In this document: positions 9,822 through 51,586 of the stretch, piece by piece | How the letters are laid out: each line of letters starts with the position of its first letter | Numbering within the stretch: the first letter of the stretch is position 1 | NCBI GenBank assembly: GCA_036930585.1 | Contig: GCA_036930585.1_3066.1 | Reading direction: 5' to 3' (one strand) | Length of the DNA: 64,000 nucleotides | Origin: a phage | Made by a program: the position numbers and the translations under genes | The notes under the pieces: model-generated | What the model saw: the letters and a program-made list of their open reading frames with translations, nothing else | Database searches by the model: none | Told to the model about the DNA's origin: nothing

Positions 9822-10475
9822 TTAATACTTGCAAGATTTCACAGTTTCAATGAAAACATTTTTAGCTTTCTGTGAATCAATATTTAAAATTTTTCTATAA
9901 GCCTTTAACTTTATAGAATAATTATTCCAGACTAAATTATCAGTCTGTTCATCATGTTTATCAATTATATTTAAAAACGAATCAAGCAAGATAAACGTCT
10001 CAAACGAAATTATATTCGATTGAAGTAGTTTAAAAATATAACTTGATTGAACTTTTGGATTATATTCAAAGATTTCTTTAAAAGCAGAAACTTCAACTTT
10101 TTTACTAAAATAGTAAATATTGCGAATATCTTCTTCAAACTTAAATTTAATTTGCTTTAAGCGTCCGATATATTCACGATAAAACACAAGTGCATCGGCG
10201 TCAGAGATGTCACCAATCCAAGCATCCTGGTTAGCAACAAGATTGCTTATAAAGATTAAAGCAAGTTCCTTTAATTTATATTTTTCTGATAACTTCTGGA
10301 AAAAATACTTATCCCTTCGCTTTTGATAAGCGGCATCAGACACCCGCATGCACCAATTATACTTAATTACATCATACTTTCCATTCATATGTTGTTTTAT
10401 CATTAAGTATAATTTATAAACTGATTTACCATCAATATATCTTTCACCACCAGCAGGCATGCGGAGTTTAATCAT
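9822..10475 (-). CDS. 59: Helicase loader gp59
   Basis: 217-aa ORF MIKLRMPAGGERYIDGKS...; length and sequence as T4 gp59. Confidence 0.9.
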   Translation of the reverse strand: MIKLRMPAGGERYIDGKSVYKLYLMIKQHMNGKYDVIKYNWCMRVSDAAYQKRRDKYFFQKLSEKYKLKELALIFISNLVANQDAWIGDISDADALVFYREYIGRLKQIKFKFEEDIRNIYYFSKKVEVSAFKEIFEYNPKVQSSYIFKLLQSNIISFETFILLDSFLNIIDKHDEQTDNLVWNNYSIKLKAYRKILNIDSQKAKNVFIETVKSCKY

Positions 10476-47427: not shown

Positions 47428-48240
<813 letters not shown>

Positions 48241-48342: not shown

Positions 48343-48543
48343 ATGGCACAAAAATTAATGGCACTTGTTAATGCCATCAAAGGTAATAAAAAACGTATAG
48401 CTTTTACTATTTCTGCTATGATAGGAATTTTACTTTGGAATTTTGTTTTATCGCCAGTTGCTATTGCTCATGGTGTTAGTATTCCAGTAGTTACTCTTGA
48501 TACATTCGTAGATCTAGCATTTGCTTTAGTTGGGTTAATTTAA
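48343..48543 (+). CDS. Small membrane protein (66 aa), opposite orientation to flanking early genes
   Basis: AAAGGAGG SD 6 nt before ATG; two hydrophobic segments; stop overlaps gene 61 stop. Confidence 0.5.
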   Translation: MAQKLMALVNAIKGNKKRIAFTISAMIGILLWNFVLSPVAIAHGVSIPVVTLDTFVDLAFALVGLI

Positions 48544-49571
48544 ATCTTGGCATATTTAGATAACCGCATTTTAGCCATTAACCCCTGGGCAATATTATTT
48601 TTCATATATTCCACAATTTGTTCAGGGGTTGCACCTTCCTTTCTAATCATATCATTAACATCTTTTGATTTCCAGGGAGATTTATCCCAAAACATAACCC
48701 TTTCTCCTGCATCAACTAATTTAGTCATTCGCTTGATAGTGTCAGGGTGACGAGGTTCATTATCTAAAACCCACACTCGTCTATCTTTAAATGGAACAAC
48801 TTCTAGGTCTAATTGACCACCCGTAATAGCTATACCATTTTCAATAAAAAGTGAATCTATAGGTCCTTCTAGAACATATACATCACCATCTTTAACTCGT
48901 TCGACTCCATATATTTTTGTTGCCTCAGGATAAGCTTTGATGGTGATATATTTTTGAGGAGCATCTTTCTTTAATGCACGTCCTTGAAAAGACTCAGCTT
49001 TTCCGTTAGCATTATAAATTGGAATAACAAGACGAGGCTCAGGTGTTTCCTTTTTATATGTTCCTGGAGCTATACTATTAACTAATTTAGGCCATTCAGT
49101 TGTAAACCAAAGATATTTCCATTTATCCTTTGGAATACAACGAGCTTTTACATATTTTATAATTGGATGGTCTTCCGCCAATTTATCTAATCTGATGCAT
49201 GACGGAAGAGATTTAATTATTTTCTTCTCAGGTTGTTTAGGAAGTTCTTTAGGTTTTTCTACTGGACGACTTTTACCTTTTTCTTTTCTTATTTCAAAGA
49301 TATACTCACGATATAAATCAGGTTCAAACTCCTTTAAATATATTCCGATTGGTGCATGATAGTTACAGTTATAACAATGAATATTTCCTTCATTATTATC
49401 ATCGCCATAATACCATCCACGGGCTTTATTTTGATCGGTTTTTGAATCTCCACAAACGGGACATCTAAACCGTAATTTAAAAGTTGAACTATTATTTACT
49501 TGTGCGAATTTAGGTAAATGAGCCAATGCACGGTATGCAAACTCATTATCAATCCAAGGTATTGATGACAT
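48540..49571 (-). CDS. 61: DNA primase gp61
   Basis: 343-aa ORF with N-terminal zinc ribbon (CPVCGDS...CYNC) and TOPRIM region. Confidence 0.95.
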   Translation of the reverse strand: MSSIPWIDNEFAYRALAHLPKFAQVNNSSTFKLRFRCPVCGDSKTDQNKARGWYYGDDNNEGNIHCYNCNYHAPIGIYLKEFEPDLYREYIFEIRKEKGKSRPVEKPKELPKQPEKKIIKSLPSCIRLDKLAEDHPIIKYVKARCIPKDKWKYLWFTTEWPKLVNSIAPGTYKKETPEPRLVIPIYNANGKAESFQGRALKKDAPQKYITIKAYPEATKIYGVERVKDGDVYVLEGPIDSLFIENGIAITGGQLDLEVVPFKDRRVWVLDNEPRHPDTIKRMTKLVDAGERVMFWDKSPWKSKDVNDMIRKEGATPEQIVEYMKNNIAQGLMAKMRLSKYAKI

Positions 49572-49573
49572 TT

Positions 49574-49738
49574 TTACTCTTCTTTTTCTTTAGATTCCTC
49601 TTTTTTCTTTTTAGGAATCTGTTCAGGACCTTTATTTACTACAGCGCCTGACGTTGTTCCAGTAGAGATATTTTCAGGACTACCACCTGAATCTCCAGCG
49701 ACCATATCTTCTTTGATAAATTCTTTATATGTTTTCAT
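49574..49738 (-). CDS. Hypothetical protein (61.1-like, 54 aa)
   Basis: MKTYKEFIKEDMVAGDSGG...; TAATATG junction with upstream gene. Confidence 0.45.
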   Translation of the reverse strand: MKTYKEFIKEDMVAGDSGGSPENISTGTTSGAVVNKGPEQIPKKKKEESKEKEE

Positions 49739-49784
49739 ATTAACCTCTATTCATAAAAGCATTAAAAATTTGGTCATCAATAGA
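49736..49784 (-). repeat. 49-bp direct repeat, copy 1 (3' end of the 61.2-paralog plus RBS/start of 61.1)
   Basis: 37-nt perfect match plus 12 nt with 2 mismatches to 50094..50142. Confidence 0.85.
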
Positions 49785-50096
49785 TGGCGCAGTAATATTT
49801 TCTGCATCATTTAGCAAATCATTAATTTCATCAGATAGCATAACACACGTACCTTTATTTCCTGTAATTGTTACTGCACAATTACGAACGTTTTCTTTAT
49901 CAAATTTTAGGTTAATATTTTCATAGTGAAAATCCTTTAATGCCGAATATATCTTTAAAATGAAATTGTCTTTTACTACAATAAACCCAACCTCACTATT
50001 AAAACGCGGTTCATGGAAACTGTAATAAACCTTTTCATCTATAAAATCGTATGAAATTTTTTCCATTTTTAAATATGAAAATTCAGAACTATACAT
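49740..50096 (-). CDS. 61.2-like single-domain paralog (118 aa)
   Basis: Homologous to C-terminal half of 61.2 (…EVGFIVVKDNFILKIY…) and identical last 13 aa SIDDQIFNAFMNRG. Confidence 0.6.
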   Translation of the reverse strand: MYSSEFSYLKMEKISYDFIDEKVYYSFHEPRFNSEVGFIVVKDNFILKIYSALKDFHYENINLKFDKENVRNCAVTITGNKGTCVMLSDEINDLLNDAENITAPSIDDQIFNAFMNRG

Positions 50097-50142
50097 ATTA
50101 ACCTCTATTCATAAAAGCATTAAAAATTTGATCGTCAATAGA
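50094..50142 (-). repeat. 49-bp direct repeat, copy 2 (3' end of 61.2 plus RBS/start of the paralog)
   Basis: See copy 1. Confidence 0.85.
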
Positions 50143-50730
50143 AACTTTTACTTTAGGCTGTTCTTCAAACGGTAATTCATATCCACATATTACAATTTTG
50201 TGATCGATACCAAAATACACAGAAGCAATATGATTAATGATGTTTTCAGTAAAGTCTAAATTAACATCAATATCTTTTTGACCACAGCCCAAAGGATAAA
50301 TAATGCGAGTAATTCGATTATCTTTAACAAATATTCCACCGACATACTCTGTGCTGCGTTTAAAGTTTACACGTTTCCTAAATGAAAAATATTCAGGTTC
50401 TTTATGGGCTCGACTCATAGGGCTTAAAGTGTATTCCGAATATGAAATATCAAATCCTACACCTTCAATATGAGCCAAAGTGTCATGATTAAACCAATTA
50501 TAATCGTATGCCAAATCCATTAAATTGTAATATGTGAAAGGCACCGGATTAACATCATATGTTGTACCTTTAAAATCTGCCCAGGCAACGATTTCGTTAT
50601 CTTTAACAATTACAAAAATTGTGCCAATAAGATATCCACGGTTATTTTCATCGGGCGTTATATTATAACATTGTGCATCAGGAAATTTACCGTATTTAAA
50701 CGGTGGATTTTTGTGCATATAATAAATCAT
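50098..50730 (-). CDS. 61.2: Gene 61.2 protein (two-domain, 210 aa)
   Basis: Two internally repeated ~100-aa domains each with G(I/F)(F/V)VKDN motif; position next to sp. Confidence 0.65.
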   Translation of the reverse strand: MIYYMHKNPPFKYGKFPDAQCYNITPDENNRGYLIGTIFVIVKDNEIVAWADFKGTTYDVNPVPFTYYNLMDLAYDYNWFNHDTLAHIEGVGFDISYSEYTLSPMSRAHKEPEYFSFRKRVNFKRSTEYVGGIFVKDNRITRIIYPLGCGQKDIDVNLDFTENIINHIASVYFGIDHKIVICGYELPFEEQPKVKVSIDDQIFNAFMNRG

Positions 50731-50731
50731 A

Positions 50732-51025
50732 TTATTCGCCTGTGATTTCGGTTACGATATTTTTATTATTGAAGTTTTTATCACAATACAGAACGTAATT
50801 ATACTGCATTACACCACCAGACTTAAGCTGTTTTTGTACTTCAGCTTTCATTTCAGGACGATCACGTTCAACGATATTCATAATATCCGCTTCAATTTGA
50901 GTTTCAACTTCAGTCTGATCTGCAGTCATAGACCATTCGCACAAATCTTTGTCATAACCCGCCATAGCAGGCTGAGCAGCGCAAGAAGATAAAGCAAAAA
51001 TTGCAGCAAAGATAAATTTTTTCAT
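50732..51025 (-). CDS. sp: Spackle (periplasmic inhibitor of superinfecting phage lysozyme)
   Basis: 97-aa ORF with signal peptide MKKFIFAAIFALSSCAAQPAMA. Confidence 0.8.
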   Translation of the reverse strand: MKKFIFAAIFALSSCAAQPAMAGYDKDLCEWSMTADQTEVETQIEADIMNIVERDRPEMKAEVQKQLKSGGVMQYNYVLYCDKNFNNKNIVTEITGE

Positions 51026-51085
51026 GATAATCTCCTCAGTAGTTTATGTTTATATAGTATCTCAATTTCCAACAAAAGTAAATAG

Positions 51086-51343
51086 TTATTTTAAAACTTC
51101 TGCATAATCACATGTTACAAACTGTTTCTCTAACTTGGCGATTTTACGAAAGTATCTTTTGCATTGACGAATCTGTCGCTTTGTAGGGCGCACAGCAAAC
51201 TTAATAAATTCCACTCGACCAAATGGAGGGCTTTCTTCTGCCGGAATATCTAATACTAATTCCCACGTATCCGCAATAAGCGCTTTGAATTGCGTATTTT
51301 TCCTGACGTTATACGGAGTAGGTTTAAATAAAACAATATGCAT
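51086..51343 (-). CDS. 61.4: Gene 61.4 protein (85 aa)
   Basis: Start moved to ATG 51343 (TAATATG junction with dmd, GAGGA SD). Confidence 0.55.
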   Translation of the reverse strand: MHIVLFKPTPYNVRKNTQFKALIADTWELVLDIPAEESPPFGRVEFIKFAVRPTKRQIRQCKRYFRKIAKLEKQFVTCDYAEVLK

Positions 51344-51344
51344 A

Positions 51345-51527
51345 TTATCCTCGGCAATCCACTTCACATACCTTCTTGTCATCAATGAAAGCTTTAACTA
51401 GTGCTTTATTAACTTCAGCATATTGAGTAGTAGCCCATTGAACGTCATCTTTCATCATTGTGGTTTCTTTAGTAAACATGCTTTCATTCTTAAACCACCC
51501 CATAAAAACTACCTTTACCAATTCCAT
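51345..51527 (-). CDS. dmd: Dmd (antitoxin against RnlA/LsoA-type toxins)
   Basis: 60-aa ORF MELVKVVFMGWFKNESMFTKE... Confidence 0.85.
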   Translation of the reverse strand: MELVKVVFMGWFKNESMFTKETTMMKDDVQWATTQYAEVNKALVKAFIDDKKVCEVDCRG

Positions 51528-51555: not shown

Positions 51556-51586
51556 TACTATACCATAGTCTTGTCAGCTTGTAAAC
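51556..51586 (-). promoter_or_regulatory. T4-type early promoter upstream of dmd
   Basis: Minus strand GTTTACAAGCTGACAAGACTATGGTATAGT. Confidence 0.5.

Follow-up and report, generated by a model that had tools for sequence, protein, structure and literature searches.

A single-domain relative of the anti-DarT factor AdfA in the anti-toxin gene cluster of T4-like phages

The published ‘anti-TA island’ of T4 comprises dmd, tifA (61.4) and adfA, whose products act on different toxins: Dmd on RnlA, TifA on ToxN and AdfA on DarT (PMC9391042). An early promoter drives dmd-tifA, and T4 gains and loses DNA in this region by short-homology recombination (PMC9391042). Few inhibitors of the DarTG toxin-antitoxin defence have been characterised; among them is AdfA (T4 gp61.2; Pfam PF23813; ‘DUF7184’ at NCBI). 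This protein works through its binding to DarT1, which depends on residue 164 (Arg to His in RB69) (PMC11257639/PMC11825919). Among 17 Tevenvirinae, 13 encode adfA, while T2 is described as a phage that ‘naturally lacks an adfA homolog’ (PMC11825919). The locus described here carries adfA together with a second, shorter gene, which the first-pass annotation had taken for a recent partial copy of its neighbour, and whose surroundings it had described, in agreement with the literature just cited, as counter-defence genes.

Gene order and distribution of the 118-residue gene

The window, as the whole 64,000-nucleotide stretch of DNA analysed here is called, is T4-like (Tequatrovirus) phage genome. 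On its minus strand the genes follow in the order gene 41, dmd, 61.4/tifA, sp, 61.2, X, 61.1 and the primase gene 61 (48540–49571), where X denotes the ORF of 118 aa at 49740–50096, which is present with an ATG start as first reported. All features of the cluster given here lie on the minus strand. Upstream of dmd stands a candidate sigma-70-like early promoter (51557–51585), proposed from its match to the consensus (TTTACA, 17 nt, TG, TATAGT). It is followed by dmd itself (51345–51527; Pfam Dmd, E = 1.8e-45), encoding the antitoxin against RnlA/LsoA, and by 61.4 (51086–51343; Pfam DUF7279), identified as tifA, the ToxN inhibitor, from PMC9391042, with its start adopted from the 258-nt annotation in the records of close relatives. 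Next come sp (spackle; 50732–51025; Pfam T4_Spackle) and adfA, gene 61.2 (50098–50730), whose 210-aa product scores 455.8 bits against PF23813 and consists of two domain copies and a C-terminal tail. Downstream of X lies 61.1 (49574–49738; 54 aa), its start translationally coupled to the tail of X. The genes of the cluster lie close together and are joined by TAATATG overlaps; nothing resembling a terminator came to light from the promoter candidate to gene 61, and no convincing promoter or terminator was found for X itself. X occupies the place of the AdfA family within the cluster gene 41-dmd-61.4-sp-[slot]-61.1-61, and in every lineage examined the slot directly after sp holds one or two family members bearing the tail. 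The nearest public records are 98–99% identical to the locus over 1.7 kb; in PV857777, 61.2 bears the label ‘anti-DarT factor A’ and X that of a hypothetical protein.

Two features outside the cluster are recorded in passing. A hydrophobic ORF of 66 aa lies on the plus strand between dam and gene 61 (48343–48543), overlapping the end of gene 61 by 4 nt; related records label it RB69ORF029w-like, a predicted membrane protein or a ‘holin family protein’. The dam methyltransferase ORF (47428–48231, minus strand) has an aberrant C-terminus around 47500–47540. The residues that normally close T4 Dam are encoded in the window in a different frame, beyond a run of A (TCTAAAAATATAATG); this suggests either a frameshift of 1 nt or an error in sequencing.

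X is already known, as a common accessory gene carried as a hypothetical 61.2-like ORF since 2006, and is not a new kind of system. It is RB32ORF033c, entered in the RB32 genome in that year as unknown and ‘similar to gp61.2’, and it falls into PHROG 4122 (E = 2e-72). The T2 gene labelled ‘gp61.2’ is 97.5% identical to it and is the sole family member in T2; RB32ORF033c, T2 ‘gp61.2’ and PHROG 4122 are the same gene as X, 97.5–99% identical and in the same position. A tblastn search finds X in 338 phage records, with identity of at least 90% in 294, including T2, RB27 and RB14 and many isolates from Escherichia, Shigella, Yersinia, Salmonella and Citrobacter. The identical protein is found on 159 contigs, on all of which it is named ‘hypothetical’.

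Beyond this genus, orthologues of X with 46% identity are present in Gaprivervirus, and X therefore predates the split between Tequatrovirus and Gaprivervirus. Purifying selection is evident from dN/dS values of 0.03–0.30 over at least 7 orthologue pairs, and 30 residues are invariant among 14 diverse X sequences. Across 1.84 billion representatives, exhaustive searching with HMMER matched 6 proteins. Source or context was checked for four of these, and each belongs to a T4-like phage or a contig of one; the remaining two are a protein of 119 aa and a fragment of 63 aa. Word-indexed searches gave 5–18 clusters. No distant cellular homologue of X appears among the four HMMER matches examined in this way, and the AdfA family is restricted to T4-like phages.

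This distribution bears directly on the first explanation offered for X, a recent tandem duplication of the 3′ half of 61.2 with the 49-bp direct repeats described below as its boundaries. The two genes are indeed adjacent, on the same strand and identical at their 3′ ends, but that explanation is already refuted by the distribution and divergence of X and now has almost no probability: nucleotide identity is limited to the 49 bp (no other repeat of 17 nt or more links X and 61.2) while the bodies are highly diverged, X is present at 95–100% identity in about 276 other phages and at 46% in another genus, it is under purifying selection, T2 has X without AdfA, and the core of X matches both AdfA domains. 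Equally remote is the idea that X is a decaying or functionless remnant kept by a tightly coupled operon, for although X is dispensable in nature, T4-type phages being without it, its dN/dS is low, an uninterrupted frame is seen in about 300 records and in different genera, 30 residues are invariant as noted above, its AlphaFold2 model is confident (pLDDT 82.7), and in phage Elenatom adfA is broken while X is intact. Judged from the sequence comparisons, X did not arise by a recent duplication but is an ancient and conserved protein of the AdfA family with a single domain, and the anatomy and evolutionary history given here are very probably correct.

Similarity of X to AdfA and to other occupants of the slot

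The similarity between X and AdfA is unevenly distributed. BLASTP aligns X with AdfA residues 98–210 at 34% identity (E = 5e-10), a result largely driven by the tail, and X scores 31.9 bits against the Pfam AdfA model PF23813 (cut-off 27), with residues 22–118 placed on HMM positions 113–211. Most of that score also derives from the tail. When the last 14 residues are removed, the Pfam match is lost, the remaining body of 104 aa giving no hit to the AdfA model at E ≤ 1; in the X of VR25 and in P0014, Pfam aligns the tail alone. Such results are what would be seen if the body of X were unrelated to AdfA and had acquired its 3′ end by recombination, making the Pfam match an artefact. The tails also appear to exchange between paralogues, and hhalign, run on tail-less family alignments, pairs X with the N-terminal domain of AdfA at E = 0.0015 with a probability of only 16.7%.

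Capture of the tail by an unrelated protein is nevertheless improbable, because the bodies can still be matched without it. A profile of tail-less X scores 9.3–12.2 bits on five tail-less AdfA proteins, a level reached by 0–3 of 10,000 composition-matched shuffles, so that the profile beats 9,997–10,000 of 10,000 on every AdfA tested. The same region of the profile (about 27–73) aligns to both halves of each of these proteins. Two motifs, G-x-I-x-V-K-D-N and then F-x3-N-x3-A, occur in the same order and 22–24 residues apart in X and in both AdfA domains, and the predicted order of strands and helices is also the same. Direct Smith-Waterman alignment of tail-less X with AdfA gives z = 4.3–4.9, with 1–4 of 2000 shuffles reaching the score. 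Outside the 14-residue tail, the likeness appears weak but real, and consistent from one comparison to the next. The core motif G-x-I/F-x-VKDN, pointed out at the start, occurs in all three domain copies.

Structure predictions agree with this picture. The AlphaFold2 model of X (pLDDT 82.7) has five strands, a helix, a strand, a helix and a terminal tail helix, and the model of AdfA, which is of low confidence (pLDDT 67), shows two successive five-strand-helix-strand units and then a terminal helix; the same strand and helix order is found in X and in each half of AdfA. A Foldseek search of BFVD with the X model retrieves an RB69-type AdfA (E = 1.4e-4) and a 145-aa protein of VR25 (E = 1.1e-3), as well as the Gaprivervirus orthologue. 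A sequence search of the PDB with X and AdfA found no solved relative; no recognisable fold was identified, and NCBIfam had no model.

The proposal that the 118-aa protein is a paralogue of 61.2/AdfA is upheld by the agreement of the Pfam score, the body-only profile and the predicted order of secondary structure. Its narrower form, that X copies the C-terminal domain of its neighbour, is not supported, since the core matches both AdfA domains about equally. The two-domain architecture of about 210 aa is absent; X is a single domain of 118 aa and therefore a paralogue within the family, not an AdfA orthologue. We conclude that X is a genuine but deep paralogue, with one copy of the domain that AdfA carries twice. 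The two have in common adjoining positions in the slot between sp and 61.1, the tail and the core motifs. They differ in size and build (two domains and 206–216 aa in AdfA, one domain and 118 aa in X), with a body identity of about 20–25%, and in orthologous group (PHROG 3781 against PHROG 4122). Binding to DarT1 is known from AdfA.

Other small proteins occupy the same slot, and the AdfA family comprises at least four subfamilies: the two-domain AdfA, X (PHROG 4122), a 145-aa protein (PHROG 8539) and a 120-aa protein of the P0032 type. In Gaprivervirus the X orthologue is preceded not by AdfA but by the tail-bearing 145-aa protein (VR7ORF039c; VR25 locus L006, 1559–1996, and also L009, L010 and L011), which takes the adfA position in Gaprivervirus and Dhakavirus (86 records) and ends in SVDDQIFNAFMKRD. 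In other T4-like contigs a single tail-bearing protein of 120 or 125 aa directly follows sp. The 145-aa and 120-aa types share with X the slot after sp, the tail and the TAATATG coupling to the next gene, but their bodies have no detectable sequence likeness to X or AdfA. For the 145-aa body in particular no significant sequence similarity to either was found, and it is connected to the family by the tail and the fold-level Foldseek match only. One record calls the 145-aa protein a ‘serine/threonine protein kinase’, a label that nothing here supports.

The conserved tail and three arrangements of the slot

The 49-bp direct repeats noted in the first-pass annotation are as described, with 47 of 49 positions identical, 37 nt being perfect and followed by 12 nt with 2 mismatches. 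In the first copy (49736–49784, minus strand) the final 14 codons of X (SIDDQIFNAFMNRG) are followed by TAA, a single base and the start codon ATG of 61.1; in the second (50094–50142, minus strand) the final 14 codons of adfA, which encode the same peptide, are followed by TAA, a single base and the start codon ATG of X. The identical C-terminal stretch is therefore of 14 residues and not 13 as first counted. The perfect 37-mer occurs exactly twice in the 64-kb window and in none of 100 shuffles. Both mismatches are synonymous changes in Asp codons (GAT/GAC), and on the coding strand of each copy a Shine-Dalgarno sequence, GAGG, lies inside the Arg-Gly codons of the tail.

The tail DDQIFNAFM(N/K)R(G/D), predicted to form a terminal helix, is conserved in 20 of 20 family genes compared, is identical in the X and AdfA of the window, and is invariant across all of the subfamilies, four or more, found in the slot behind sp. 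The peptide stays constant while its synonymous codons vary (RB69, Gaprivervirus, P0014, P0032), and since these codons differ between genera, selection acts on the tail peptide itself. The same DNA also holds the stop, Shine-Dalgarno and start signals for the following gene (TAA-N-ATG). The 49-bp repeats are conserved functional gene ends of the AdfA family and not scars of an insertion or of a recent duplication.

Some features of the tails vary with lineage. In Tequatrovirus the tails of both paralogues have GCT and AAT-AGA (N-R), and those of Gaprivervirus have mostly GCC (7 of 8 tails) and AAG or AAA-CGA (K-R), with combinations of CAA/CAG and TTT/TTC shuffled among the Gaprivervirus genes. 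That both paralogues have the same lineage-specific states suggests gene conversion, with shared base composition or selection as the alternative. The near-identity of the tails between paralogues would then be kept by selection on the peptide, by selection on the ribosome-binding site and, as a third force, by concerted evolution, the tails recombining with or converting one another. Translation of the next gene is coupled through the stop, Shine-Dalgarno and start signals, which overlap, and the tail DNA would provide a natural crossover point at which family members are gained, lost or swapped. At the RNA level, a TCTATT/AATAGA hairpin over the Shine-Dalgarno sequence is possible in one repeat copy; folding of the two junctions gave z-scores of −1.05 and +0.72, neither significant, and Rfam had no match in 49400–51100.

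The unit of 358 bp encodes X alone, with no other Pfam or PHROG domain. A self-mobile element, such as a homing endonuclease, a transposon or an integron-like cassette, was considered and rejected, the unit containing no nuclease, recombinase or dedicated site.

Three arrangements of the slot are found among Tequatrovirus-type genomes: AdfA only as in T4, X only as in T2, and both as in RB32 and the window. Junction searches returned about 158 records with AdfA next to X, 141 with the T2-type junction of sp to X, and at most 180 with the T4-type junction of AdfA to 61.1, so that the three are about equally common. The search for presence or absence among T-even genomes that had been suggested at the outset shows X to be variably present, missing from T4 and replacing AdfA in T2. 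Nor is the two-gene arrangement universal or already annotated in T4, from which it is absent, but it is common and has been annotated since RB32.

The T4 junction of AdfA to 61.1 contains exactly one copy of the repeat, the product expected of a crossover between both. The T2 junction of sp to X keeps a 14-nt relic of the end of a tail (TAGAGGTTAGTATG) upstream of X, which suggests that T2-type phages arose from two-gene ancestors that lost adfA. In T2 (locus L002, 1989–2003) sp and X are separated by 12 nt, TTAGAGGTTAGT, ahead of the ATG; these resemble the closing bases of the tail, ATAGAGGTTAAT, and look like the remains of an upstream family gene that has been deleted. The repeated junction is precisely where the arrangements differ, which makes recombination there a plausible route of gain and loss, and a crossover at the tails would account for the AdfA-only, X-only and two-gene states. 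The earlier idea of a cassette gained or lost at the junction survives to this extent, although the repeats themselves are not insertion scars. The amplification of tifA in T4 (Srikant et al. 2022) is similar in that it concerns the same neighbourhood and changes gene content via recombination at short repeats. It differs in that those events used microhomologies of 2–10 bp and were of laboratory origin, whereas the X locus has a conserved 49-bp module of coding and translation signals and a polymorphism that is natural and old.

Exchange is also suggested by the adfA allele of the window. Over about the first 60 columns, its product is identical to RB69 AdfA at 49 of 59 positions and to T4 AdfA at 24 of 60, and in the C-terminal domain the relation is reversed (76 of 83 for T4, 61 of 85 for RB69). 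By these identities the allele is a mosaic, with an RB69-like N-terminal part of about 60 aa and a T4-like C-terminal domain. The residue in it that corresponds to RB69 residue 164 is His167. A likeness to RB69 also seems to extend to the last codons of sp (3′ end, about 50732–50760), so that a block running from the 3′ end of sp into the 5′ end of adfA may have been exchanged.

Two further genomes are of interest for the slot. In Elenatom (locus L005, 1368–1664 and 1796–1990), adfA is split into an N-terminal piece of 98 aa and a C-terminal piece of 64 aa beside an intact X-type gene (75% identical); either adfA was inactivated in nature while X was kept, or the assembly is at fault. RB69 (locus L008, 3593–4001) is without X and has two unrelated small ORFs between adfA and 61.1, RB69ORF033c of 65 aa and ORF032c of 63 aa, as well as imm and imm.1 between sp and 61.4; the content of the slot therefore varies between genera.

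Possible function of X and meaning for the family

As a member of the family in an anti-toxin cluster, X is a plausible anti-defence candidate, and recombination at its junction is plausible too. It would be made early, from the dmd/tifA/sp/adfA cluster, and would, like AdfA, bind a toxin of the host and block it, with its variable body setting the specificity for a variant, of DarT type or of another toxin, that differs from the tested E. coli DarT1. That X is a stoichiometric toxin binder of this kind, with a specificity unlike that of AdfA, is the most likely role, put forward tentatively, at somewhat less than even odds. Genetic data place a bound on it. T2, which carries X and no AdfA, cannot plaque on DarTG1 cells without adfN, and crosses of T2 with RB69 selected on DarTG1 transferred the adfN region only (PMC11825919). 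X therefore does not neutralise that DarT1 at native levels. In its native T4 context the AdfA of T4 is equally ineffective against the same DarT1, and the T2 result therefore limits the proposal of toxin binding by X but does not refute it.

The strongest competitor is that X is a functional family member with a role other than inhibition of DarT, which is rather doubtful but far from negligible. X might act on another toxin or defence target, modulate AdfA via the tail, or take part in superinfection exclusion with sp and 61.1. The full sensitivity to DarTG1 of T2 without adfN, despite X, is in its favour, as are the very different targets of the neighbouring genes (RnlA, ToxN and gp5 lysozyme). 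Where AdfA needs His for binding to DarT1, X has Asn72, in the first helix, aligned to residue 164 of RB69 in an alignment that is uncertain at such divergence; orthologues of X have Asn, His (Elenatom/P0005 type) or Asp (Gaprivervirus) there. Against such a role, the sole family member with a known activity binds DarT1. Modulation of AdfA has a further difficulty, as X stands alone in T2-type phages and so is not an obligate partner of AdfA.

Toxin binding with an altered specificity may be joined to the history of the tail in a single, more elaborate reading, in which DDQIFNAFM is both a functional module, common to several otherwise very dissimilar proteins of the slot behind sp, and a dedicated recombination joint, and X is the ‘missing’ AdfA of the T2-type phages. 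The tail helix could dock on DarT-like toxins at a conserved site, or else on a partner, from host or phage, that the proteins have in common, T-even phages would swap specificity bodies at the tail DNA, and X would neutralise a toxin variant not covered by AdfA, AdfN or AdfM. As a whole this joint reading is unlikely. The best overall explanation, which combines the anatomy and history of X with a toxin-binding function, is favoured with modest confidence.

For the published view of the island, the main consequence concerns T2. In the sense of a family member, the statement that T2 lacks an adfA homologue is incorrect, as T2-type phages have a relative of AdfA; the single-domain paralogue at the adfA locus of T2 was apparently not counted in PMC11825919. 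About 60% of phages in the T4 genus carry the single-domain member. What is added to the earlier records of X is the modularity of the family and an invariant tail that doubles as a joint for translational coupling and recombination. One or two variable domains joined to an invariant tail give a simple account of the variation of the anti-toxin island, and the modular AdfA family may offer natural variants that differ in their specificity for DarT homologues and other toxins.
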